NCBI GenBank assembly: GCA_041752275.1
Contig: JBGSHK010000015.1
Coordinates: 64,641 to 128,640, forward strand
Reading direction: 5' to 3'
From: Minisyncoccia bacterium
Lineage (GTDB): Bacteria; Patescibacteriota; Minisyncoccia; Phycocordibacterales; CAIZLB01
Length of the DNA stretch: 64,000 nucleotides
Positions 10,316-59,240 of this stretch are shown piece after piece. Within the stretch, counting starts at the first letter, position 1; the number at the start of each line of letters is the position of its first letter. A program made the position numbers and the translations under genes. The notes beneath the pieces are model-generated. The model searched no databases and had not been told where the DNA came from. It saw nothing but the letters and a program-made list of their open reading frames with translations.

Positions 10316-11428
10316 ATGGCAAAAATGGTAAAAAAACAAAAATCTGAACCTGAAGAAGATGAAGATTTATTAGAGGGTGAAGAAGATGATACAGTAGACT
10401 CTGACACAGGAGTAAAATCCAAGAAAGGTAAAAAAGGGTCTAAAGATACTGATTCTTCTATACTTGATACTATAGCTGAGATTAAAAGTCGTTTCGGTGA
10501 AGAGTCCATCATGAAGCTTGGTGAAAAACCTCGGTTAAATGTAGATGTTGTTTCAACTGGTTCTATAGGTTTAGACGCTGCGCTCGGTGTAGGTGGTTTA
10601 CCAAAGGGGCGTATTATAGAAATATTTGGACCCGAGTCTTCAGGTAAAACAACACTTGCACTTCATGTGATAGCAGAGTCTCAGAAAAAAGGTGGTGTAT
10701 GTGCATACATAGACGCAGAACATGCTATGGATCCTGACTATGCAGGAAAGCTTGGTGTAAATATAAACAACCTGCTTATATCGCAACCTGATGCTGGAGA
10801 GCAGGCTCTTGAGATAACAGAGAGTCTTGTTCGAAGTGGTAAGATAGATGTTATAGTTATAGACTCTGTGGCAGCTCTAACACCCAAAGACGAGATCGAG
10901 GGAGATATGGGTGCACATCATGTTGGTAAACAAGCAAGACTAATGTCACAGGCACTTAGAAAACTTACAGCTATCACAGCTAAAAGCGGAACTATAGTTA
11001 TCTTTATAAATCAAATACGTATGCAGATAGGTGTTATGTTTGGTAACCCGGAAACTACACCAGGTGGAAAAGCTTTAAAGTTTTATACTTCTGTTAGACT
11101 TGATATCAGACGTATAGCTCAGATCAAAAAAGGAGAAGATATAATGGGAGGACGTGTTCGAGTTAAGGTTGTAAAAAACAAAGTCGCTGCCCCGTTTAAA
11201 CAAACTGAGTTTGACCTAATGTATAACGAAGGTATATCACTTGAAGGTGAAATGATAGCTCTAGGTGAGAAGATGAAACTGATCACAAAAAGTGGATCAT
11301 CATATGCATATGGTGATATAAAACTAGGCCGAGGGTATGATGCAACGAGACAGTTTTTGAAAGAAAAAGAAAACAAGGCAGTTAAGGATAAGATACTTAA
11401 GGAGATAAGGGATCAGTTGAAAGAATAA
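10316..11428 (+). CDS. recA: recombinase RecA (with acidic N-terminal extension)
   Basis: Walker [14 protein letters not shown]1/L2 loop regions and an overall RecA core; about 60 extra acidic N-terminal residues. Confidence 0.9.
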
Positions 11429-11487
11429 AGCTCAAACAAAAAATATGCATTCTCTAAAGAAGAAATGCATATTTTTTGTTTTCATTT
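11428..11487. repeat. conserved ~60-nt bidirectional terminator element, copy 1 (second copy at 59170-59227)
   Basis: aagctcaaacaaaaaatatgcattctctaaagaagaaatgcatattttttgttttca; copy 2 differs by two compensatory base-pair changes in the stem with the loop conserved; it sits between convergent recA and rpsR. Confidence 0.6.
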
Positions 11488-11565
11488 TAAAGGACCCACT
11501 CTAGAGTGCGGTGATTTATCCAGGTTGAGTTAACAACACCCTAGAGCTCGGGCCCCTAAACCTGA

Positions 11566-35649: not shown

Positions 35650-35650
35650 T

Positions 35651-35733
35651 TGCGCTGGGGGAGATTTGAACTCCCACACCCTTGCGGGCGCTACCACTAA
35701 AAGGTAGTAAGTCTACCTTTTCATTACCTGCGC
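35651..35733 (-). tRNA. type-II (long variable arm) Leu-like tRNA with anticodon UUA (would read UAA/UAG); possible suppressor or pseudo-tRNA
   Basis: Minus strand: acceptor GCGCAGG/CCAGCGC (one A-A mismatch), discriminator A73, Leu-like D-loop AAAAGGTAGA, anticodon stem CTACC/GGTAG with loop TTTTAGT (U33, anticodon 34-36 = TTA), long variable arm CGCCC-GCAA-GGGTG, canonical T-arm GGGAG-TTCAAAT-CTCCC. Confidence 0.45.
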
Positions 35734-35800
35734 ATAGTATAAGGTTACTATAGTTGTATTTGTATATCAAATAGGAATATGATATATTATTTTTACATAA

Positions 35801-35873
35801 GCGCGATTAGCTCAGTTGGTAGAGCAACTCATTTACACTGAGAAGGTCGGGGGTTCAAGTCCCTCATCGCGCA
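35801..35873 (+). tRNA. tRNA-Val (anticodon UAC)
   Basis: Acceptor GCGCGAT/ATCGCGC, D-arm GCTC-AGTTGGTA-GAGC, anticodon loop TTTACAC, T-arm GGGGG-TTCAAGT-CCCTC, discriminator A. Confidence 0.8.
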
Positions 35874-35880
35874 CAAACAG

Positions 35881-35909
35881 AAAAAAGCCCACTAGGGCTT
35901 TTTTATTTT
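35881..35909 (+). terminator. rho-independent terminator after tRNA-Val (a second hairpin at 35918-35942)
   Basis: aaaaaagccc-acta-gggctttttt, followed by gcgcc-cgac-ggcgc-tttt. Confidence 0.55.
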
Positions 35910-35944
35910 GAAGCGATAAAAAGCGCCCGACGGCGCTTTTGTGT

Positions 35945-36030
35945 GGGACTTGAAAAGCTTTCCCTTATTTTTGAGAATCTTGATTCGAAAAAATGGGAAA
36001 GGTATACTGACCGTGTAACGGTCAAGTCCC
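35945..36030 (+). repeat. structured repeat element, copy A (T-arm-mimicking closing helix specific for tRNA-Val)
   Basis: gggacttga...tcaagtccc closing helix; the 3' strand equals the T-loop/T-stem of tRNA-Val 75 nt upstream. Conserved core CGAAAAGC-stem-TTTTGAG-...-CGAAAAA-stem-GGTATACTGA-hairpin(TGTAA loop). Confidence 0.6.
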
Positions 36031-36099
36031 CAATAAAGTACAAAAAAACAGAGCTCCTGAGAGCTCCATTTTTCTAAGTTAAAATATTTTCTCTAATAT

Positions 36100-36797: not shown

Positions 36798-37571
36798 TTA
36801 ATTTTTAAGTAATAATTTTTCAACAAAACCTTTGGTAATTGGTCCATACATACCAACGGAAGGTTTTATGTTATTTTCAATCTGAAATTTTATTAAAGCT
36901 TTTTTTGTTAAAGATCCAAATTTATTAGTTTCAAAACCAGGTGATCCTGGACCGGTTTTTGATAATATAAAACCTTGTGAATTTAGAAACTGTTGTAACC
37001 ATTTAACATCTTCACCTTTCATATTTAAACATAAAGTTCTTTTAATGTTTGGTATTTTTATTTTACTAGATTTTAAATGAATATCTAAAGTTGTTGAACT
37101 ACTTCTTAAAAGTACATCTGGTATAACTGTAGGAGTAGACCCTCCTGACCAACTTGATCCAGCGGGTAAAATAGGGGGTGCGGGAGGTGGTGGTGTAGTT
37201 GATGGCCAAGTTGTTGTTACATTTGTACCATTTTCAAATGATAACCATCCAGTGTTGTCATTGTAGGCATAACCTTTAAAAGAAAAACTTTGTATTGAAA
37301 CATTTGAAAAATCAAACCAGCCCACTGATTCACTCCAGGCATAACCCCCTAATACACCATTTGTATTTGTAACGCCATCTAAAACTAACCATCCGGTGTT
37401 GTCGTTGTAGGCATAACCTGTAACCGCAGTGTCTGCTACAGTGACATTTGAAAAATCAAACCATCCTACTGATTCACTCCATGCATAACCTGTAGTGTTA
37501 GCAGCGAAAACTGGAGCTGTTATTAACATAAATAAAATAAGAAAACACTTCTTCATAATTTGATTATACAT
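36798..37571 (-). CDS. secreted cell-wall-associated protein: two tandem ~45-aa repeats, Pro-rich linker, C-terminal peptidoglycan-binding domain
   Basis: Signal peptide; a duplicated GYAWSESVGWFDFSNV...GYAYNDNTGWL unit; TTPPPPAPPILP linker; C-terminal PG_binding_1-like segment (GEDVKWLQQFLNSQGF...LIKFQIENNIKPSVGMYGPIT). Confidence 0.5.
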   Translation of the reverse strand: MYNQIMKKCFLILFMLITAPVFAANTTGYAWSESVGWFDFSNVTVADTAVTGYAYNDNTGWLVLDGVTNTNGVLGGYAWSESVGWFDFSNVSIQSFSFKGYAYNDNTGWLSFENGTNVTTTWPSTTPPPPAPPILPAGSSWSGGSTPTVIPDVLLRSSSTTLDIHLKSSKIKIPNIKRTLCLNMKGEDVKWLQQFLNSQGFILSKTGPGSPGFETNKFGSLTKKALIKFQIENNIKPSVGMYGPITKGFVEKLLLKN

Positions 37572-43526: not shown

Positions 43527-43613
43527 GGAGGAGTGGCAGAGAGGTCGATTGCACCTGTCTTGAAAACAGGAGGGCTCTAACGGGTCCCGTGAGTTCGAAT
43601 CTCACCTCCTCCG
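43527..43613 (+). tRNA. tRNA-Ser (anticodon UGA)
   Basis: Acceptor GGAGGAG/CTCCTCC, anticodon stem CCTGT/ACAGG with loop CTTGAAA, long variable arm, T-arm GTGAG-TTCGAAT-CTCAC, discriminator G. Confidence 0.8.
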
Positions 43614-45071
43614 CACGGTAAGACTATCAGCTTGATTTAACATCAAATTGAATGGAGAACGCAAGGTAAAACCTAGCGTTTTTTCATTTAATACACAGTT
43701 CTGAAGTAAGAAACCAAGAAATTGGCGCTTTTCTTCAACTTCGGAACTAATAAATATCTCTTTTGCTCGTTTTGCTATATTTAATGTTGTATTTGCTGTG
43801 ATATAGAAGTGTTCGTCCGCATCAGAGTGGTCCTTCATTTGGTCCAACACATCAGCTTGTTTCTCTTTGTACTCTTTCAAAAAGCTGTCATACATTTCAT
43901 CCGTAATACGACCGTCGAGCTTATCTTCATACATCTTCTTTATCCTTGCTTCATATTTATCGTGTTCAGTCTTGAGTGAGTTTATGCTTTGTCGGTAAAA
44001 TCTATTTTCATTTTCACCAATCTCCTTCAACGCTTCGGTAATTTCACCAATCTTTTTATCTGAAAGCTTGAAATCGAGCGCTTTGTAAACCTGCTCCAAA
44101 AGCATATCTTCAGTTACAGAGACCCTTTTACAGTCTTTGTACCCTGAACAACTGTAGTAGGTATATTTTTCTTTTTTAAGTTGCCCACCAATTACACCTC
44201 CACATTTAGCACATACAATAAGACCCCTAAAGATAAAAGGTTTTGAAGCATACTTTGTGGGAACTTTATTATGTCTTTCCATTACCTCTTGGCATTTATC
44301 AAACAGTTCCTTTGAAATAATTGGTTTATAAGCATGTCTGTACCGTAAATCATGAGTTCTTGAGTAGGCATAACCATAGTAAAAACTATCATTCAATATC
44401 TTGAATATCATAGCTTGATTTACCCTTTCATTGACCCTGCTTCTAAAACCTATTTTATACATTCTATCAGCGAGGGTTTTTACAGACACATCACCTTTCG
44501 CATATTCCTCAAAGATACGAACTATGAAATGAGCCTTGTCATCAGGCACCACATCAATCCTACGCATCCTTAATGGATTATCATTATACAAACTCTTGTA
44601 GCCAATGGCTGGCATTCCCGTAATTTCACCATCCTCTCTCATTTTGTCGTGTTTTCGTTTAAGGTTATCACTCAATTGCAACACATAACTTTTAGCAAAC
44701 ATAACGCCCATATCCCAACGCAATATATCAGCACTGTTTGACTTCTTATTTATAACAAGATTTTCTCTATAAAAATGCAACTCAACTTTATCTTCCCTTC
44801 GTAACTCGTCAAAGATAACACTCTCGCGAAAACTTCTTTGTAATCGGTCTACAGTATCCACAACAACAGCTATGGTTTCTTTTGACTTTTTTATTATTTC
44901 AATAATTTCTTGAAACTTTATTCTATACCCTTTCGTTGAACTTTCTTTCAGTTTAAATGTTTTCCACTCTTCCAAACCCTTACCTTTAACATAATCAAGG
45001 ATACGGGACAGCTGTGCATCATTACTATCTTGGTTTTTGTCACTTTCTCTGGCTAAAATAATTGCTTTCAT
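43602..45071 (-). CDS. large serine recombinase (phage-integrase-type resolvase/recombinase with zinc ribbon)
   Basis: N-terminal resolvase domain with a catalytic Ser (AIILARESDKNQDS), a central recombinase domain and a C-terminal Cys-rich zinc ribbon (CAKCGGVIGG...YYSCSGYKDC); the stop codon overlaps the tRNA-Ser 3' end by 12 nt. Confidence 0.85.
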   Translation of the reverse strand: MKAIILARESDKNQDSNDAQLSRILDYVKGKGLEEWKTFKLKESSTKGYRIKFQEIIEIIKKSKETIAVVVDTVDRLQRSFRESVIFDELRREDKVELHFYRENLVINKKSNSADILRWDMGVMFAKSYVLQLSDNLKRKHDKMREDGEITGMPAIGYKSLYNDNPLRMRRIDVVPDDKAHFIVRIFEEYAKGDVSVKTLADRMYKIGFRSRVNERVNQAMIFKILNDSFYYGYAYSRTHDLRYRHAYKPIISKELFDKCQEVMERHNKVPTKYASKPFIFRGLIVCAKCGGVIGGQLKKEKYTYYSCSGYKDCKRVSVTEDMLLEQVYKALDFKLSDKKIGEITEALKEIGENENRFYRQSINSLKTEHDKYEARIKKMYEDKLDGRITDEMYDSFLKEYKEKQADVLDQMKDHSDADEHFYITANTTLNIAKRAKEIFISSEVEEKRQFLGFLLQNCVLNEKTLGFTLRSPFNLMLNQADSLTVRRR

Positions 45072-45535
45072 TTGAATAGTGATATTATTGAAATAATAAT
45101 TGCAATTAAAGATAAAATCAGCGTTACAGGATTTTCTGTTGCTTTGTTTTTAAAATACTCCCAACCACTTTTTCCTTTAGTTGTTAATACAATACTTTCG
45201 GTTAACTCTTCAGTTACATCATAACTAAAGCTTGAGCCATTTTTTGTTTCTATTACTGGAAATGTTTTTTGAGTGCCAATAACTATTAAACCATCTAATT
45301 CCATTCTTTTTAATTCAAACATTATTTCATTTTTCCAACTCAACTCAAAAATACCATCAGGAGAATATACGGGGTATTTATCATCATATTTTTTTATGAT
45401 AAACCCATAATCAGGAAAAACTAAAGGGTCTTCAGATATAGATTGGTATTCTTCAGGGATTTCAAAGAGATATTCACTCCTAGATATTTTACTACCTTCT
45501 AACTCTTTTAATAATTTTATAAGTCTATTCCTCAT
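45068..45535 (-). CDS. hypothetical protein with C-terminal TM, translationally coupled to the recombinase
   Basis: 155 aa; 4-nt overlap with the recombinase start; C-terminal hydrophobic helix. Confidence 0.35.
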   Translation of the reverse strand: MRNRLIKLLKELEGSKISRSEYLFEIPEEYQSISEDPLVFPDYGFIIKKYDDKYPVYSPDGIFELSWKNEIMFELKRMELDGLIVIGTQKTFPVIETKNGSSFSYDVTEELTESIVLTTKGKSGWEYFKNKATENPVTLILSLIAIIISIISLFK

Positions 45536-45543
45536 ATAGCAGT

Positions 45544-45723
45544 TTATTTTGTAGTACTTAATTTATTCAAAAAGGCTTCAAAGTCCGTCTTCTCTATACG
45601 AAACTCTTTGCCTATTTTATATGCTTTTAATTTCTTTGCATCAATGTAACGATAAATAGTCATTATATTGAAGCCTAGCTTTTCTGCTAAATCTTTAGCT
45701 GTGTAGAAGTCTTTTTCTTTCAT
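45544..45723 (-). CDS. excisionase-family/MerR-like HTH DNA-binding protein (putative Xis)
   Basis: 59-aa ORF below the ORF-track cutoff (MKEKDFYTAKDLAEKLGFNIMTIYRYIDAKKLKAYKIGKEFRIEKTDFEAFLNKLSTTK); matches the excisionase-type HTH pattern. Confidence 0.5.
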   Translation of the reverse strand: MKEKDFYTAKDLAEKLGFNIMTIYRYIDAKKLKAYKIGKEFRIEKTDFEAFLNKLSTTK

Positions 45724-45750
45724 AATTTATTTTTATATTATTGTTATTAA

Positions 45751-46905
45751 TTATACTTTACTATTCTTTACATTGCAATCTTCAATGTCGGACAACCTGA
45801 AAGGTTTAAAATCATCAATAGCATCCTTTATTTGTCTTACCCAGTCGTGGTATGTTTTACCAGAAATCTCGTCTAGGAGCTTCAAATCATCAGCTATACG
45901 ATACCAAGTCCTAGATGTTGCGTATCTCTCAACCACAGCCCTAATATCCCTTATTCCCTCCTTACTTAAGACCCTTAGTCCTACTAGATACAGTGCATCT
46001 TTAGGTTTTGTATCAGGTCTGTTTTTAAAGATTGCTTCTAGTGTCTTTTTGGGATTACTTTCAACATCAAATAAGAATAGATTTTTCCCTGTTATTAACT
46101 CATCCCAATAATTTATCAATATCTTCTGACAAACATCCTTCTTGAATATATCAGCAAAAGTTGGATTTTCTTTCAACCCTAAACCCTTAAGAATTGCATT
46201 CATTTTTACCTTTTTTGTAAGTCTAGCTTCAATACGCAACACTTCTTTTTTATCTTTTTTTGTCAAAGTTTCAAAGAGTGATAGTTGAAGTGGATTTTGA
46301 TCCTTATCAATAGCTCGCTTATTACCTTTCTTTAGATCCTGAACTTTATCATACACAACAAGAGAATGAGAGTTTGTATAGAACTGAAGTGAGTGACCGT
46401 TATTCCTAAAACTATCTTTATTAAGATCCATTTTCTGACTTACATCAATCTTATGTAATTCGTTAATAACAAAACCAGAAGTATATCCTTTTGTAAACTC
46501 TATGTTCTTTGAGGGGTGAAAGACCGACACTTTTGCATTTCTTAAATCTTCTAATTTAACGTATACAAACATTTCAGTCATTGCTTCTTGTAGATTTACA
46601 ATTACCCTTTCAAAATCTTTTTCTTGGACCTCGTCAACATTGTTTCCATAAGCCATTTTTGCTACAGAAAACTCTATTTTGAGCGGTATTTCATTACCGT
46701 TTTTTGTCGGTCTTTTCATCAGTGTAATTCTTGGTTTGTAAAAACCTTCTTTCTTATCTGTGGCGGTAGGATTATTTACACATTTAATGAGATAATTTCC
46801 TGACATTTTAAGAATATTCGCATTAGGAGTAAAAGCTTCGGGTCGAAGTCTATAGTAGCCTCTCGGTATCGTTAATATTACTGTGTCTAGCATATACATT
46901 TTCAT
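45751..46905 (-). CDS. putative replication initiation protein (Rep_trans-like)
   Basis: 384 aa; the segment HSLQFYTNSHSLVVYDKVQDL resembles the Rep_trans active-site RxYDK region; the mobile-element context fits. Confidence 0.35.
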   Translation of the reverse strand: MKMYMLDTVILTIPRGYYRLRPEAFTPNANILKMSGNYLIKCVNNPTATDKKEGFYKPRITLMKRPTKNGNEIPLKIEFSVAKMAYGNNVDEVQEKDFERVIVNLQEAMTEMFVYVKLEDLRNAKVSVFHPSKNIEFTKGYTSGFVINELHKIDVSQKMDLNKDSFRNNGHSLQFYTNSHSLVVYDKVQDLKKGNKRAIDKDQNPLQLSLFETLTKKDKKEVLRIEARLTKKVKMNAILKGLGLKENPTFADIFKKDVCQKILINYWDELITGKNLFLFDVESNPKKTLEAIFKNRPDTKPKDALYLVGLRVLSKEGIRDIRAVVERYATSRTWYRIADDLKLLDEISGKTYHDWVRQIKDAIDDFKPFRLSDIEDCNVKNSKV

Positions 46906-47182
46906 TACTTATTTTATTTTTATAAATCAAAACCTCTTCTGCTTTTGTTATAATTGCCTGTTCAATATCCAAAGCAATCTTTCTGTTTATCGGATGAAAA
47001 ACATTGAAGTTTTTACCGTTCAGGTTTTTGGTCGGATAAGTTACTCGATATCCACTTCCATCTAATTTTGTATGAATACCGATTGAGCCAAGATACAGAC
47101 TATTCTCAATAACTAAACTTGCTATAGCTACAAGTCCATTATTTGGCTTTATTGGTATTATTTGTATTTCTGTTATTTTCAT
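46850..47182 (-). CDS. SpoVG-family protein
   Basis: MKITEIQIIPIKPNNGLVAIASLVIENSLYLGSIGIH...FHPINRKIALDIEQAII aligns with SpoVG (AIAS...HPIN) conserved blocks. Confidence 0.55.
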   Translation of the reverse strand: MKITEIQIIPIKPNNGLVAIASLVIENSLYLGSIGIHTKLDGSGYRVTYPTKNLNGKNFNVFHPINRKIALDIEQAIITKAEEVLIYKNKISNENVYARHSNINDTERLL

Positions 47183-47384
47183 ATAGATGTGGATTTACTC
47201 TTTTATCAACCTTCAACAACAATGCGAAAAAACCAAGTAGGTTGTTTCGGTCTATTTCGTTGAGTTCTTTCAACGACCAGTCCTTCTTTATTTCTTTTTT
47301 GTTATTGTTTTCGGACATAAAAAAACCTGTAAGGGTGTCTTACAGATTAATTTAATTGATGTTTACAAAAGTTTGTAAACTTTT

Positions 47385-48959
47385 CTAGGGTTTCAAATAC
47401 TTCTTATTTATGGATATTGATTTAGTAGTAATATCCAGAAAATCCTTGATTTTTGTATCTTGAGCTATGATACTGTTAACCTTTTTACCTGCCTGATAAA
47501 CCTTATTTTCAGAGACCTTTTCGCCAAACTTATAACCCCAATCATCAATTACCTCGTCATTTGCCCATATCTTATTTTCATCCTTGAACAAGGTCCTCAT
47601 CAGCTTATGAGGGTCGCTTTCTTCCTTTTTTGATATAAGTATTTCTTCATTGTTAAATGAAAGTTTACGTGTATTTTCATCAAACGAAAGCGATGACGGG
47701 TTCTTGATTTCTTTTTTTTCCTTACCTTGTTTCAGTCTAATCGTAAACAGAAAACCTCTATCGTATAAATCAAACATCTGTTTTGGACCGTATGAAAAAT
47801 CTTCGATTTCAAGATAGCCATCTTTTTCGAGAGATAACATTGTATGGACAAATAAAAACAAATTAATAGTGTCGTTTTTATTATTTCTGCTTATTTTAAA
47901 AGTATCATTTGTATCATTTCCAATGTATTCTGGTTCAAAATATGGATGACCTATTTCCAAATCATCTCTTTGATACTCTTCATATTTTTCTTGAATATGC
48001 TTTATCAAAATATCCCTTTGTTTTTTAAAACCAAAAAATTGAGTGTGCAATTGCAAAGATAAACCTTCAGAAAAGAAAGTTCCTGTTAAGCCCTTTTTAC
48101 TTAAACCGTGCAAATTATCATTAATGAAAGCTGTAAGATACTCATCTAGATACTTTTCTATTTTATCTGTTTTCTTTATAAATAAACCAAAATTAGTATA
48201 TTCAAAAATCAGTCTTGATAATTTTTGTTGACTATCTTCATGAAGAAAGTTTTCTGCTGTAAAACCACCTTTCTTTAGCTTTTCTCTATTATGTTTATAA
48301 AACATTAATAAAAACTTTTCTATATCTTCTGTATTCCATTTACCGCCGTCATATTCAGGTACTAATTTGTGGACCAACTCAATAAAATCTTCATCAGCTT
48401 GTTTGTCTAGTATTGCATCTCTATATTCTTTTACTGGCTGATGCTCAAGTTCAGAAAACTTACTATTATCAAAATCATCATCTTTTAACATGTTTTCAAG
48501 AAAAGCTCTTTGCTCATTACTCAAGCTACCGTATTTTTCAACATCGTTTCTATTCTCTTCGGTATCTTCAAGATATTCCTTCATTAATCTCCCTGAATAT
48601 TCAGATAAAAAACCTCCCTCAAGCAGACTGTAGTCAGCATCGCCATACACCAAGAAACTTTCTTCGTCGAGTTCTTTTCCTGTATTTAATAGGTAGTTAA
48701 GAATTGTAGGAGACCCTGTTTTGTCATGTATCCTTTGAGTCGATTGCTTAATGGCTTTATTTATATCATCTTCAATTGTTGCAATATCACTAGGATTTTT
48801 TGGTTCAGAGACAAAAACATGCTTACCATCAAGAGTAAAAACATTACTCCATAGTGTTGAAATATGCTTCTTTTTTAGTATCCAATAAAGAATGAAAAGT
48901 TCCTTTTCATTTAGGTAGTTTTTATCTTTGTTTTCTAAATCGATTGTCCAACTGTTCAT
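47385..48959 (-). CDS. hypothetical 524-aa cargo protein of the integrated element
   Basis: Long soluble, acidic protein with no recognisable catalytic motif; the largest gene inside the island. Confidence 0.35.
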   Translation of the reverse strand: MNSWTIDLENKDKNYLNEKELFILYWILKKKHISTLWSNVFTLDGKHVFVSEPKNPSDIATIEDDINKAIKQSTQRIHDKTGSPTILNYLLNTGKELDEESFLVYGDADYSLLEGGFLSEYSGRLMKEYLEDTEENRNDVEKYGSLSNEQRAFLENMLKDDDFDNSKFSELEHQPVKEYRDAILDKQADEDFIELVHKLVPEYDGGKWNTEDIEKFLLMFYKHNREKLKKGGFTAENFLHEDSQQKLSRLIFEYTNFGLFIKKTDKIEKYLDEYLTAFINDNLHGLSKKGLTGTFFSEGLSLQLHTQFFGFKKQRDILIKHIQEKYEEYQRDDLEIGHPYFEPEYIGNDTNDTFKISRNNKNDTINLFLFVHTMLSLEKDGYLEIEDFSYGPKQMFDLYDRGFLFTIRLKQGKEKKEIKNPSSLSFDENTRKLSFNNEEILISKKEESDPHKLMRTLFKDENKIWANDEVIDDWGYKFGEKVSENKVYQAGKKVNSIIAQDTKIKDFLDITTKSISINKKYLKP

Positions 48960-49030
48960 ACGCTTTACTTTACTTTACATTCCAATATAATTCAACGATA
49001 TATAGAAAAAGTTTTAGATTGTTCAATCAA

Positions 49031-49390
49031 TTATTTAACAGTTTTCTTTTTGAAGATTTGGCGTGTCATCAACCCTAATATAACAATACTGAAAAAAACA
49101 CTAATCTGAACATAGTAATTGGTCAGAGTCGCATAACTAGATAAATAAAACACTGCGACAAAAATACAATAATGCCACCATTTTGGCTTAATACTGTTTG
49201 GATTATTCTTACCTTTAGAGTAAAGCAACGCCATTCCCAACATAAGTATGACCATTACAACAATGACACCTAATCCTAATATCTTTTGCGTAGTGACATC
49301 CAACGAGTTACCTTCTAACATTGTTGCCAACGTCGCAATCCATCTGTAGTTTAGAACTATTAATAATATTAGGTAATTTCCCAATGGCAT
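49031..49390 (-). CDS. hypothetical membrane protein (3-4 TM)
   Basis: Hydrophobic profile only. Confidence 0.3.
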   Translation of the reverse strand: MPLGNYLILLIVLNYRWIATLATMLEGNSLDVTTQKILGLGVIVVMVILMLGMALLYSKGKNNPNSIKPKWWHYCIFVAVFYLSSYATLTNYYVQISVFFSIVILGLMTRQIFKKKTVK

Positions 49391-49506
49391 ATCTGTATAA
49401 TATCACCATATTTAATGATTTGCATCAAAATGCACTTTGGTTTACTTTTACTTTGGTATGTATTAAGTTATAATACCATTATTACTTTTAATCATAAAAA
49501 AATATT

Positions 49507-49965
49507 ATGGACACAATCCAAACGCCTAATCAGGCAACACCAATCATTAAAAAAAAATCTATATGGTCAACATTGATATGGATTGGTTACTTTATATCCA
49601 TGCTAGCGACACTTTCTAATTTTTTCCTTTTTCTAACATTAAGAATAACGGATGGTAAGGACATTATAACCTCATCAGATGGTACAAGTATTAGCTTGAA
49701 TGCGTCATTAATAGCCACTGCCATTACTTTAATAATTTATTCAATTTTAACTGTATATTGTATAAAAAGAAAAAAGTCTACCTTAAAACTGTTGCCTGTG
49801 CTTGAGGTTATTTTATATTTTGTAGGTATTGCAAGTGCCATAATAATTTTTCAACTAAATGACTTATCAATGGCATATCTTCTTGGACCGATAATAAGTG
49901 GTTTAATAAGACCAGCAATAGCGATATTTGTTATGTATAAAAACAAAGCTGATTACATTTCGTAA
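49507..49965 (+). CDS. hypothetical membrane protein (4 TM)
   Basis: Hydrophobic profile only. Confidence 0.3.
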   Translation: MDTIQTPNQATPIIKKKSIWSTLIWIGYFISMLATLSNFFLFLTLRITDGKDIITSSDGTSISLNASLIATAITLIIYSILTVYCIKRKKSTLKLLPVLEVILYFVGIASAIIIFQLNDLSMAYLLGPIISGLIRPAIAIFVMYKNKADYIS

Positions 49966-50159
49966 AACTGGCATTATTTTTAAAGCCTATAACAGTATTA
50001 GAACTGTATACGTACCTAAACAGTCGCATATAGTTTTTTTATTCCCAGAAATCCCAATTCTTGCTTAACGGCCGTCCAATTCACAGTTCTGAACGCATCT
50101 ACCCACTCCCGCTATGAGAAAATGAATACATACTTGTTATGTATTCATTTTTGATTATA

Positions 50160-50203
50160 GGAGGAGAGGAGGCCGACAGTTTTGCTTCCGTGTGAGATTC
50201 GAA
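50160..50203 (+). pseudogene. degenerate tRNA-Ser fragment (acceptor/D-region fused to the T-arm 5' half) at the right end of the island
   Basis: ggaggagaggaggccgacag...ccgtgtgagattcgaa versus tRNA-Ser GGAGGAGTGGCAGAGAGGTCGA...CCCGTGAGTTCGAA; the anticodon arm is missing. Confidence 0.45.
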
Positions 50204-50277
50204 AAGCTTTTCTATGTTTTGAGCGCTGTGGTGCGAAAAACGAGAAAAGGTATACTGAAGCTGTAAGCTTCGAATCT
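50195..50277 (+). repeat. structured repeat element, copy B (closing helix agattcgaa/ttcgaatct mimicking the tRNA-Ser T-loop)
   Basis: Same conserved core as copy A (cgaaaagcttttc...ttttgag...cgaaaaa...gagaaaaggtatactga-gaagc-tgtaa-gcttc); inserted in the T-loop position of the degenerate tRNA-Ser fragment. Confidence 0.6.
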
Positions 50278-50296
50278 ATCGTGCTATAATAACCCC

Positions 50297-50713
50297 ATGA
50301 ACTGGACCATATACGCCCTACTCTCTGCTGTATTTGCTGCACTTGTAGCAATATTTGGAAAGCTAGGTTTAAAAAATATTGATTCAACTTTAGCTACAAC
50401 TATACGTTCGATAGTTATGGCAATCTTTCTAATAATCACAGCATTCTCTTTAGGTAAGTTTAATTTTTTAAATACTATAGACAATAAAGCTTTGATATTT
50501 ATCATACTCTCAGGTGTGTCAGGTGCAATATCTTGGTTGTTTTATTTTTTAGCTATCAAACTCGGTCCTGTTAGTGCGGTAGCAGCCATAGATAGAACAA
50601 GTATAGTTTTTGTTTTTGTACTATCTGTGTTGTTTTTGAGTGAATCATTAACAGTATTAAAAAGTATAGGCGCACTTGCCATAGTAATCGGTGCTATATT
50701 AATGGCATTATAA
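50297..50713 (+). CDS. small EamA-like (DMT superfamily) membrane transporter
   Basis: 138 aa with 4 TMs and an EamA-like pattern (ALLSAVFAALVAIFGKLGL ... ISWLFYFLAIKLGP). Confidence 0.5.
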   Translation: MNWTIYALLSAVFAALVAIFGKLGLKNIDSTLATTIRSIVMAIFLIITAFSLGKFNFLNTIDNKALIFIILSGVSGAISWLFYFLAIKLGPVSAVAAIDRTSIVFVFVLSVLFLSESLTVLKSIGALAIVIGAILMAL

Positions 50714-55450: not shown

Positions 55451-55522
55451 GCTCCCGTCGTTTAATGGATAGGACATGACTTTGCGGAAGTCAAGATCTA
55501 GGTTCGATTCCTAGCAGGAGCA
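55451..55522 (+). tRNA. tRNA-Arg (anticodon GCG, unusual G34), with 3-bp D-stem
   Basis: Acceptor GCTCCCG/CAGGAGC (one mismatch), anticodon stem TGACT/AGTCA with loop TTGCGGA, T-arm CTAGG-TTCGATT-CCTAG, discriminator A. Confidence 0.55.
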
Positions 55523-55566
55523 CAAATTATTACTACATGTGTAAGTTAAAAAATCCGGAGGATTTT

Positions 55567-55667
55567 TAGGAATCGAAAGGGTTATCCTATATTTTCGAGC
55601 AGCTTTGCTGTAAGAAAATAGGAAACCCGTACTGAACTCGTAGAGTTCGATTCCTAGCAGGAACACA
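55567..55667 (+). repeat. structured repeat element, copy C, fused to a partial tRNA-Arg 3'-end copy
   Basis: Closing helix taggaatcgaa/ttcgattccta, then cctagcaggaacaca (T-stem 3' + acceptor 3' + ACA of tRNA-Arg, 1 mismatch); conserved core with covarying stems (gggtta-cct/aggaaaccc, gaactc-gta-gagttc). Confidence 0.6.
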
Positions 55668-55697: not shown

Positions 55698-55737
55698 CGA
55701 TTTGTGGTTCTGAGCAAGCAAACTGCTTTGCTTGCGT

Positions 55738-55840
55738 CTAGGAATCGAAAAGTTTTGTGATGTTTTTGAGAATTTGCAAAATTCGAAAAAACCACAAAGG
55801 TGTACTGGTCCTGTAAGGACCGATTCCTAGCAGGAGCACA
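55738..55840 (+). repeat. structured repeat element, copy D, fused to a partial tRNA-Arg 3'-end copy
   Basis: Closing helix ctaggaatcg/cgattcctag, then caggagcaca identical to the tRNA-Arg 3' end; core cgaaaagttttgtg...tttttgag...cgaaaaaa-cacaaaggtgtactgg-tcc-tgtaa-gga. Confidence 0.6.
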
Positions 55841-55845
55841 GTAAG

Positions 55846-55869
55846 AAAAACACCCGAAAGGGTGATTTT
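55846..55869 (+). terminator. rho-independent terminator (aaaaacaccc-gaaa-gggtgatttt)
   Basis: Perfect hairpin with a T-run directly after copy D, upstream of pyrD. Confidence 0.55.
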
Positions 55870-55904
55870 CTGTGCGAGTGGAGTGAGCCGAGTATCTCAA
55901 AATA

Positions 55905-59169: not shown

Positions 59170-59227
59170 AAAGCTCAAACAAAAAACATACATTCTCTAA
59201 AGAAGAAATGTATGTTTTTTGTTTTCA
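59170..59227. repeat. conserved ~60-nt bidirectional terminator element, copy 2 (copy 1 at 11428-11487)
   Basis: aaagctcaaacaaaaaacatacattctctaaagaagaaatgtatgttttttgttttca; sits between a convergent gene pair (bPH_2 gene + / rpsT -). Confidence 0.6.
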
Positions 59228-59240
59228 CTTTAAGAAAAGA

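Follow-up and report, generated by a model that had tools for sequence, protein, structure and literature searches.

CTX-phi and other integrative mobile elements exploiting Xer (IMEX) integrate as folded single-stranded DNA via the host XerCD; they lack a recombinase of their own, and the inverted segments of the folded strand, set around an irregular centre, rebuild the target duplex. The T-loop is one of the sublocations at which tyrosine-integrase att sites lie in tRNA genes. Islands that target tRNA genes, including tycheposons (10.1101/2020.12.28.424599), are delimited by direct repeats that start in the T-loop and finish slightly beyond the 3' end of the tRNA. Their integration restores the tRNA and displaces its former 3' end, which then decays, and insertions stack at one tRNA. 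The attC sites of integrons are structured, imperfectly palindromic modules of ~60-150 nucleotides (nt) (PMC5027507, PMC3053210, PMC4792948). Since it is the fold rather than the sequence of attC that is recognised, its stems covary; the extra-helical features are confined to one arm, the exchange site lies inside the closing helix, and the gene of the enzyme is not carried by the site itself. Integron arrays grow beside a fixed docking site, with the newest unit proximal, and consist of units that are empty or hold cargo. Here we describe a small, protein-less element that resembles these systems, or on our proposal would resemble them, in the traits just named. It was noticed, as copy A, behind a tRNA-Val gene in a 64,000-nt stretch of DNA from a Minisyncoccia bacterium (GenBank assembly GCA_041752275.1, contig JBGSHK010000015.1, positions 64,641 to 128,640 of the forward strand; the window is the whole of this stretch), and it is a structured unit whose closing strands reproduce the 3' end of the neighbouring tRNA gene.

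Copy A lies 72 nt from tRNA-Val, a distance that a preliminary description made from the letters alone had given correctly (coordinates are collected in Table 1), and its closing helix, P1, is built from the tRNA's own sequence. The 3' strand of P1, TCAAGTCCC, is identical to positions 35855-35863 of the tRNA gene, which comprise T-loop and 3' strand of the T-stem, and the 5' strand, GGGACTTGA, is the exact complement. This 9-mer has exactly three matches in the window (the tRNA, the reverse complement and the direct copy) against 0.21 expected, three matches being reached in 0 of 100 shuffles, so that the claimed identity of the helix strand with the T-arm of tRNA-Val stands. Folding of copy A yields a three-way junction (-33.4 kcal/mol, z = -5.0). 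Behind TCAAGTCCC comes CAATAAAG, and the acceptor copy is indeed missing there; the tails of the orthologous units in two relatives (the second unit of L128, and L129) likewise stop after CAAGTCC. Copy A is an old, partly decayed member of its family, the lost acceptor copy being a sign of age. Of the two terminators that had been placed before it, the first hairpin (35881-35904) appears to be the terminator of the tRNA; it is orthologous to the hairpin of L129 and to hp2 of L128. The second (35919-35940), which is followed by a TTTT run, is a helix of the element, P0, found across the family at a fixed position between the segment A5* and P1 in more than 100 units, with a conserved AGCAAACTGCTTTGCT-type sequence and with covariation. 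Nor does the element begin at 35945, as had been thought: because a remnant complementary to the acceptor strand (A5*, 35911-35917) precedes P0, the true start lies near 35905. The sequence of this remnant, AAGCGAT, is shared by all units at the tRNA-Val locus and also occurs in L009.

Likewise, the 110 nt that precede the copies selected by a search pattern reveal a unit longer than copy A as first delimited. A complete unit measures ~130-230 nt, typically ~150 nt, encodes no protein, and follows the order tRNA, terminator hairpin, (GTG)A5*, P0, P1 5' strand, junction, P2, junction, P3 with a GUA loop, tail. The hairpin after the tRNA is a long palindrome whose right arm often ends in a -10-like TAWWWT just ahead of A5*; A5* comprises 7 nt complementary to the acceptor 3' strand. 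P0 is a 9-bp hairpin with a tetraloop, often GCAAGCAAA-CUGC-UUUGCUUGC, and two nt later begins the 5' strand of P1, made of the T-stem 5' strand and the complement of the T-loop. The core of the type seen in the window reads GAAAAG, P2 (with a conserved base, a tandem G.A/A.G and a variable tip), GGURUACUG and P3, which has 5-6 bp and a GUA triloop and whose 3' strand runs unbroken into that of P1. The tail copies the tRNA gene, starting in the T-loop and stopping a few nt beyond the discriminator: the 3' part of the T-loop is followed by the T-stem 3' strand, the acceptor 3' strand and the discriminator, and usually by CA with some further flank bases.

Several variations on this plan occur. 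In some units (L073, L054, L028) the P3 3' strand itself continues the tRNA copy (AGGTTCGAA...), and the folded strand would then reproduce positions ~52-74 of the tRNA gene as a pseudo-duplex capped by the GUA loop, with P2 breaking the other strand opposite T55|C56 and P0 breaking it opposite 65|66. Elsewhere (C1, L119) the real tRNA terminator stands in for P0. In a sample anchored on the P0 sequence, cores like those of the window are in the minority, and at least three unrelated junction cores (e.g. L163, L200, L207, L217) are set in the same A5*-P0-P1 frame, among them GAAAGCCGGAGC...GCGAGGCGGGGUCG...GUGACC and GAACAGCGGAAUGAU...GAGCUGGUGCCCAGAC...AGUCGAGGGAG; these alternatives, too, form three-way or multi-way junctions, keep a tandem G.A in P2 and have a P3 that continues into the 3' strand of P1. 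Larger variants reach ~230 nt. A motif, GUACCCGCGACNGUAGGG, recurs in composite units (L012, L018, L023 and the third unit of L034). The P1 3' strand has a bulge that in L052, L067, L069, L072, L092, L114 and L041 has grown to a 14-nt mini-hairpin, AAGYGUACUCRYGG, and that in many other units is a 1-2-nt AU bulge between the T-loop and T-stem parts.

The match between unit and tRNA extends over a large family. A pattern drawn from the unpaired core and scanned over one genome per GTDB species yielded at least 119 loci, with about 111 true copies among the matches listed, nearly all of them in metagenome-assembled genomes of Saccharibacteria, Paceibacterota, Parcubacteria and Nomurabacteria. 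Beyond the four of the window, the copies now known number more than 250, almost all in genomes and metagenomes of Patescibacteria, and they follow tRNAs of at least 18 isotypes; the family is restricted to Patescibacteria and widespread. In most of the 111 pattern-selected copies a tRNA lies 35-95 nt upstream on the same strand, and 14-23 nt of its 3' end return in the tail; many isotypes are represented. When every tRNA in the fetched loci is treated alike (n = 138, with 400 nt of flank), an exact 10-mer of the tRNA 3' end recurs downstream for 39 and upstream for none, and the reverse complement of T-loop plus T-stem 3' strand recurs downstream for 30, again with none upstream; the tRNAs with such recurrences represent 18 isotypes. 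An independent scan of metagenomes, anchored only on the P0 sequence, gave 120 loci with 125 hits, 81 of which have a tRNA less than 200 nt upstream. The P1 5' strand is complementary to the unit's own tRNA at 8 or more of 9 positions in 49 of these 81 units, versus 2.6% for tRNAs of other isotypes, and A5* at 6 or more of 7 positions in 48, versus 3.4%. In one locus, L034, four consecutive tRNA genes are each followed by their own unit, with matched arms and different cores. The proposal that each copy is adapted to its own tRNA thus holds far beyond the window, and the likeness to the T-arm is reproduced at other unit-bearing tRNA-Val loci (L128, L129, L061, L085, L064 and L009). Many tRNAs have no unit, tRNA-Arg(TCT) of the window being one. 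Past the discriminator the tails usually agree with the flank of the gene for another 2-12 nt (GCATT/GCATT, TCAGA/TCAGA; 12 nt in L033), so that DNA, and not mature tRNA, was their template. The insert is bounded on both sides by repeats of the tRNA 3' segment in direct orientation, 14-23 nt long and often reaching into the flank, and the tRNA is restored.

Conservation of the fold can be followed in the alignment. Across 52 units, 79% of cells are paired versus 60% in shuffles, and the covariation score is 0.51 versus 0.18; the observed value was reached in 0 of 500 shuffles, and it drops sharply when the partners are slid. P3 is the best kept helix, with 98.8% of cells paired and covariation at all 5 pairs, followed by the base of P2 (97%, with compensatory changes) and by P0 (82%, or 95-98% in the model-based alignment), which covaries family-wide; P1 reaches 72% and the acceptor helix 53-70%. 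The invariant junction letters of the pattern-selected set are an artefact of the search pattern, and all that is left of them in divergent copies is GAA(A)R and (G)YACYG, besides the GUA loop. P3 and P0 were outside that pattern, so their conservation is not an artefact of ascertainment. In the P0-anchored sample, A5* and the acceptor copy of the tail are both intact in 21 units, A5* alone in 20, the tail alone in 16 and neither in 15; the two are independent, and the cis acceptor helix is therefore not under selection. P0, P2 and P3, unlike that helix, appear clearly to be under selection. G.U exceeds A.C modestly on the + strand (208 vs 149; 32 vs 10 in P0 alone), an excess that is not decisive between RNA and single-stranded DNA.

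Exactly four copies, all on the + strand, are found in the window by the covariance model; they had been detected first as repeats. Unit B bears the arms of tRNA-Ser, from which it is 6.6 kb away. A ~6.5-kb island (43602-50112) with a serine recombinase occupies the 3' end of tRNA-Ser(TGA), its cargo comprising a SpoVG-like protein and several proteins without a Pfam match, and a decayed copy of the tRNA-Ser 3' end, CCCACTCCCGC, lies at 50102-50112, ahead of the hairpin in front of B. Given the recombinase abutting the tRNA and this remnant, the island is a separate one, inserted between tRNA-Ser and unit B. C1 and C2 stand in tandem behind tRNA-Arg(GCG), and both finish with the T-loop, T-stem and acceptor 3' strand of that tRNA. 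The earlier statement that the same architecture occurs at the Ser and Arg loci is thus borne out as to the presence of copies at both; it fails as to adjacency at Ser, and at Arg it has to be extended to two tandem copies that keep the acceptor strand. GC skew is negative over nearly the whole window and most genes lie on the minus strand, while the unit-bearing tRNAs (Val, Ser and Arg-GCG) are on the + strand. Beyond the Arg units, an extended -10-like box, TGTATAAT (55896-55904), just upstream of the start of the dihydroorotate dehydrogenase gene, is conserved in all relatives and is kept even in L122, which is without tRNA-Arg and its units.

Comparison of orthologous loci, reached in relatives via flanking genes (dihydroorotate dehydrogenase, 77-87% identity; bPH_2 protein, 74-85%), revealed that copy number is polymorphic behind identical tRNA genes at both the Val and the Arg locus. 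At tRNA-Arg (100% identical) there is one unit in L123, two in L124, and two plus a 21-nt remnant in the window; the remnant resembles the A5*-P0 start, GACTGAGCAAGCCGACGAATC, of the single unit of L123 and is orthologous to that unit, and a unit related to C1 occupies the distal position in L124. The hairpin AGTAAAAAAACACCCGAAAGGGTG..., directly behind tRNA-Arg in L123 and L124, is found in the window behind the tail of C2 (hpA'), which places the insertion of C1 and C2 between the end of the tRNA and the old terminator. At tRNA-Val, where the gene is 100% identical in L128, L129 and L130, the window and L129 have one unit each, L128 has two, and L130 holds fused remnants. L129 carries the orthologue of copy A plus an extra hairpin. 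In L128 that orthologue comes second, with a decayed tail, and between it and the tRNA lies a different unit (unit 1) with a complete and perfect 20-nt tail, TCAAGTCCCTCATCGCGCAC; the terminator that directly follows tRNA-Val in L129 trails the tail of this proximal unit. From the shift of the terminator at Arg in the window and at Val in L128 it follows that insertion occurred at the tRNA end. Insertion thus appears, from the aligned loci, to recur at this point, with the youngest unit proximal and the tails of older ones decaying.

The cores have a history of their own. The same core types stand behind different tRNAs in different genomes, several types occur within one genome (L034, L043), and cores that are 96-99% identical are combined with unrelated arms and P0 (L015/L016, L060/L119). 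Between copy A and L129, hairpin, A5* and P0 are ~90% identical, and in the P2 base and P3 there are six to seven pair swaps, all of them fully compensated; this pattern fits replacement from paralogous units better than gradual drift.

On the basis of these data we propose, tentatively, that the units are copies of a non-autonomous element that targets tRNA 3' ends, rebuilds its target duplex by folding as a single strand, and is mobilised in trans in the manner of attC, a proposal that we find credible if a little short of probable. A5* and the P1 5' strand, together with the P3 5' strand, would pair with the copied tRNA end, and one folded strand would thereby rebuild the pseudo-duplex of about tRNA positions 52-74, from which P2 and P0 would branch at the two interruptions described above. 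By analogy with attC (PMC5027507, PMC4792948) and with folded CTX-phage DNA, we infer that the fold would be a recombination site, or a guide, for a trans-acting enzyme encoded elsewhere in the genome, which would integrate the element at a matching tRNA T-loop/3' end. Once inserted, the acceptor arms would be dispensable and would decay, and the cores might be kept intact via exchange among the many paralogous copies, selection, or both. A further reading, which seems to us doubtful, makes A5* and the P1 5' strand true guides of a programmable, nucleic-acid-guided integration in Patescibacteria, in which a ~150-nt protein-less cassette would pick any tRNA gene end by base pairing and be moved by a host enzyme; an equally new alternative would be a 'shadow' RNA that is matched in sequence to each tRNA and acts on it.

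A number of observations weigh against mobility of this kind. No recombinase, transposase or reverse transcriptase linked to the units was found near those examined, and the only recombinase in the window is the serine recombinase of the separate tRNA-Ser island. Among the relatives, at 74-87% protein identity, neither a strictly empty site beside an intact tRNA nor an excised form was observed. Between copy A and L129 the unit is conserved while the downstream spacer is unalignable, which therefore argues for some constraint in place. P0 has the very position at which, in a tRNA, the body departs from the stack of acceptor and T-stem; RNA-level mimicry of tRNA predicts this position, and a DNA recombination site does not need it. 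The tandem G.A, the GUA triloop and the modest G.U excess fit RNA and single-stranded DNA equally, and the proposal gives no account of the way in which the internal strands would be matched to a new tRNA.

The main rival, and a serious one even if we judge it rather unlikely, is a cellular small-RNA gene, a tRNA 'shadow' that mimics the top half (the acceptor/T-stem minihelix) of the neighbouring tRNA. P0 would be a stand-in for the tRNA body, the three-way junction an effector domain replacing the T-loop, and the copies would have arisen via duplication; the RNA would act in tRNA metabolism, where it might, for example, regulate an enzyme or toxin that recognises the acceptor/T-arm or serve as its decoy, or else be an element for processing or stability of the tRNA transcript. 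The frame is indeed tRNA-like, with a 7-bp pairing A5*·A3, P0 at the equivalent of the 7/49 junction and T-stem identity, and the strong covariation of P0, P2 and P3, the tandem G.A motif retained across all core types and the -10-like TAWWWT often found just before A5* would all suit an RNA. Such a role would likewise agree with the constant placement of the unit downstream of its tRNA in the same orientation, with the four consecutive tRNAs of L034 that each have their own unit, with orthologues that conserve the unit and not the flanking spacer, and with the persistence of the elements in highly streamlined genomes. The helix on which the mimicry would depend is, however, poorly kept (53-70% paired), A5* and the acceptor part of the tail being lost independently, and many tRNAs, including tRNA-Arg(TCT) of the window, do without a unit. 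Moreover, copy number varies among close relatives, tandem or multiple units of different core types occur at one tRNA, core types are independent of tRNA identity, and the tail is identical to the tRNA gene into its flank, further than a functional mimic needs. Where the tRNA terminator serves as P0, transcription of the unit would require read-through.

We regard as improbable an RNA-level selfish element, retro- or viroid-like, or a junction that is a new self-cleaving or ligating ribozyme; its RNA would arise by read-through from the tRNA promoter, be trimmed by RNase P and RNase Z via its tRNA-like ends and be copied back at tRNA genes. The tRNA-like ends, the compact junction with conserved purines and the folding of the strand that has the sense of the tRNA are consistent with it, as is the CCA in the tail of L016, whose tRNA gene is without CCA. 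Such a tail is 1 of 46, however, the opposite case is also 1 of 46, and tails normally copy the gene flank, for which reason an origin of the tail from mature tRNA was rejected. None of the known ribozyme and intron models scores, even at E <= 10, no reverse transcriptase was detected near the units, and the cores are too diverse for one catalytic fold; by inspection, a hammerhead-like core is at odds with the order in which the conserved GAAA and CUGA segments surround the junction. Passive scars, that is, att duplications left by deleted tRNA-integrated phages or islands together with ordinary terminator hairpins, are highly improbable. The tRNA 3' ends are real integration hot-spots here, as the tRNA-Ser island and its remnant at 50102-50112 attest, and cargo lies between tRNA and unit in L005, L021, L056 and L110. 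A covarying P0-P1-P2-P3 fold shared across Saccharibacteria and Paceibacteria and a reverse complement of the tRNA end inside the unit would nevertheless be unexpected of scars, and this covariation and the inverted tRNA-derived strands already contradict them. A phage origin (attP or another prophage feature) finds no support either: the locus matched only through its tRNA in a BLAST comparison with 50,697 phage records, and a scan of 2.9 million viral contigs, where the element is all but missing, gave one true copy, in a fragment resembling the Candidate Phyla Radiation (CPR).

Known classes of RNA and mobile element were compared with the units directly. Rfam 15, whose models include tRNA, tmRNA, self-cleaving ribozymes, group I/II introns, T-box, RAGATH and HEARO, returned only the four tRNAs from the whole window at the gathering threshold, only tRNAs from four further loci, and, for C1/C2 and one large variant at E <= 10, only chance-level hits (best 21 bits vs a threshold of 70). 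The units are not tRNA genes: neither ARAGORN nor RF00005 calls any of them, the P0 loop has 4 nt, and the T-loop sequence is paired inside P1. A pseudoknot of the GUA triloop with the UAC of J2/3 is sterically impossible for a 3-nt loop, and J2/3 varies (ACC, GAC) while the loop stays GUA. No open reading frame (ORF) lies inside any unit, and a Pfam scan of 38 ORFs of the window and 8 cargo ORFs found no tyrosine recombinase. The cargo that occasionally lies between tRNA and unit encodes assorted accessory proteins (DUF4037, DUF5680, NUDIX and membrane proteins) and no recombinase; short acceptor-end remnants before the hairpin indicate that these stretches are separate islands inserted into the tRNA end. 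No autonomous long version with an enzyme is present among the 125 P0-anchored hits, and an apparent case of 706 nt (L164, L248) combines a truncated core with a chance 10-mer in a DUF5680-like ORF. On inspection, assignment to attC by its core boxes was rejected, the closing strands being tRNA-derived (GGGACTTGA...TCAAGTCCC in A, CTAGGAATCG...CGATTCCTAG in C2) and changing with the tRNA, and a transposase guide RNA of the IS110 bridge type has no cognate recombinase gene beside any unit examined. No description of the element emerged from the full-text searches made of the literature; the family is apparently undescribed and apparently fits none of the known classes examined.

The points at which the units depart from their nearest parallels can be set out accordingly. 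In contrast to integrons, the docking site is the tRNA T-loop/3' end, not attI, no IntI was seen and the units have no R''/R' boxes (RYYYAAC/GTTRRRY); their closing helices are copies of the target that differ per tRNA, and the fold, which at the DNA level is a prediction, is a three-way junction with a side hairpin, P0, not a simple bulged hairpin. CTX-phi and IMEX differ in their target, to which that of the units is unrelated (it is not dif-like), and the units, at ~150 nt, have no replication genes and address dozens of tRNA targets per genome. The tRNA-targeting islands are kilobases long, encode or formerly encoded an integrase, and lack both a reverse complement of the target within the element and a conserved fold with covariation. 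REPIN/RAYT and MITE-type repeats, like the units, are short, protein-less, hairpin-forming, multi-copy sequences in intergenic regions after genes, presumed to depend on a single trans-acting enzyme; unlike the units, REPINs have a fixed sequence, no target-matched arms, no tie to tRNA and no three-way junction. Homing CRISPR RNAs (crRNAs) of type V-K CRISPR transposons target tRNA genes. Such guide systems, of which the IS110 bridge RNA and the exon- and intron-binding sites (EBS/IBS) of group II introns are further examples, also resemble the units in having short strands complementary to the insertion site, alteration of which would retarget the element; they differ in architecture, which is unrelated, no recombinase, reverse transcriptase or Cas/Tns genes were found with the units, and the guide strands of the units are paired in cis to the target copy. 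Finally, tRNA-like RNAs (the tmRNA domain, mascRNA, YrlA, and viral tRNA-like structures, PMC7749636) share with the units an acceptor/T-stem minihelix with a reduced body, and both are possible substrates of RNase P, RNase Z and the CCA-adding enzyme. They mimic one generic tRNA and keep its T-loop, whereas in the units a helix and junction replace the T-loop, each unit reproduces the stems of its neighbouring tRNA, and the acceptor helix is not maintained.

Table 1. Positions of tRNA genes, units and their parts in the window
Feature	Position	Strand	Remarks
tRNA-Val(TAC)	35801-35874	+	ARAGORN; Rfam RF00005 70.4 bits
Parts of tRNA-Val			T-stem 5' strand 35849-35853; T-loop 35854-35860; T-stem 3' strand 35861-35865; acceptor 3' strand 35866-35872; discriminator A 35873
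Unit A, whole	35904-36053	+	covariance model R1, 134.7 bits, E = 3.9e-32
Terminator-like hairpin hp	35881-35904	+	AAAAAAGCCC ACTA GGGCTTTTTT; between tRNA and element; read from sequence
A5* remnant	35911-35917	+	AAGCGAT; complements acceptor 3' strand ATCGC(GC); partnerless in copy A's own tail
Helix P0	35919-35940	+	AAAAGCGCC CGAC GGCGCTTTT; covariance-model alignment
P1 5' strand	35945-35953	+	GGGACTTGA; exact complement of tRNA-Val T-loop/T-stem TCAAGTCCC
Junction J1/2	35954-35957	+	3' part of GAAAAG motif 35952-35957, whose first two bases lie within P1
Helix P2	35958-36001	+	base CTTTCCC/GGGAAAG; tandem G.A/A.G (TGAG...CGAA) in the middle; apical hairpin variable
Junction J2/3	36002-36009	+	GTATACTG
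Helix P3	36010-36022	+	ACCGT GTA ACGGT, GUA triloop; 3' strand continues directly into P1 3' strand
P1 3' strand	36022-36030	+	TCAAGTCCC; copy of tRNA-Val T-loop and T-stem 3' strand; acceptor part lost, CAATAAAG next
tRNA-Ser(TGA)	43527-43614	+	cognate of unit B
Large serine recombinase gene	43602-45071	-	abuts and overlaps tRNA-Ser 3' end
Unit B	50153-50301	+	tRNA-Ser-matched; 107.4 bits
Parts of unit B			A5* GGAGGAG 50160-50166; P1 5' strand GTGAGATTCG 50192-50201; tail TTCGAATCT 50269-50277, decayed beyond
tRNA-Arg(GCG)	55451-55523	+	cognate of C1 and C2
Unit C1	55545-55678	+	60.4 bits; terminator-like hairpin 55546-55566 replaces P0
Parts of unit C1			P1 5' strand TAGGAATCG 55566-55574; tail TTCGATTCCTAG-CAGGAAC-AC 55646-55666
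Unit C2	55699-55851	+	138.6 bits
Parts of unit C2			A5* GGTTCTG 55706-55712; P0 55714-55735; P1 5' strand CTAGGAATCG 55738-55747; tail CGATTCCTAG-CAGGAGC-AC 55821-55839
Remnant of 5' part of a third, older unit	55876-55896	+	GAGTGGAGTGAGCCGAGTATC, 21 nt; after terminator hpA' (55840-55875)

Other features of the window deserve brief mention. At 35650-35734 on the minus strand, directly upstream of the bPH_2 gene, ARAGORN calls an 85-nt 'tRNA-Stop' with anticodon TTA that the Rfam tRNA model rejects; a tRNA-Leu(GAG) occupies this position in L128 and L130, and the counterpart in a 95% relative, L127, is called 'Glu(TTC)'. From this position, the change of the anticodon loop from TTGAGGT to TTTTAGT and an A:A mismatch in the acceptor stem, it follows that this is a tRNA-Leu(GAG) that is decaying or has been re-assigned. 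Positions 11427-11490 and 59170-59233 share a 64-nt repeat (92% identity) that contains a long palindrome, AAAAAATATGCATTCTCTAAAGAAGAAATGCATATTTTTT, and looks like a bidirectional terminator or another small repeat family. Repeats with periods of 72 nt and 144 nt at 37221-37490, within the minus-strand ORF 36798-37571, whose protein has a peptidoglycan-binding domain, are probably repeated protein modules.

Patescibacteria (CPR), which are ultra-small, represent a large share of bacterial diversity, with tiny, streamlined genomes, and are poorly understood. A large fraction of their tRNA genes is accompanied by the element described here, whose arms are tailored to each tRNA and which has no entry in Rfam. 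If it is mobile, it would be a new type of miniature site-specific element, with a target set by internal complementary strands, that would bear on the plasticity of Patescibacteria genomes and might offer an integration module that is compact and can be retargeted. As an RNA gene, it would be a new class of tRNA mimic, linked one-to-one to tRNAs. Under either reading it accounts for many of the 'partial tRNA' and hairpin features of CPR intergenic regions, and it merits annotation.

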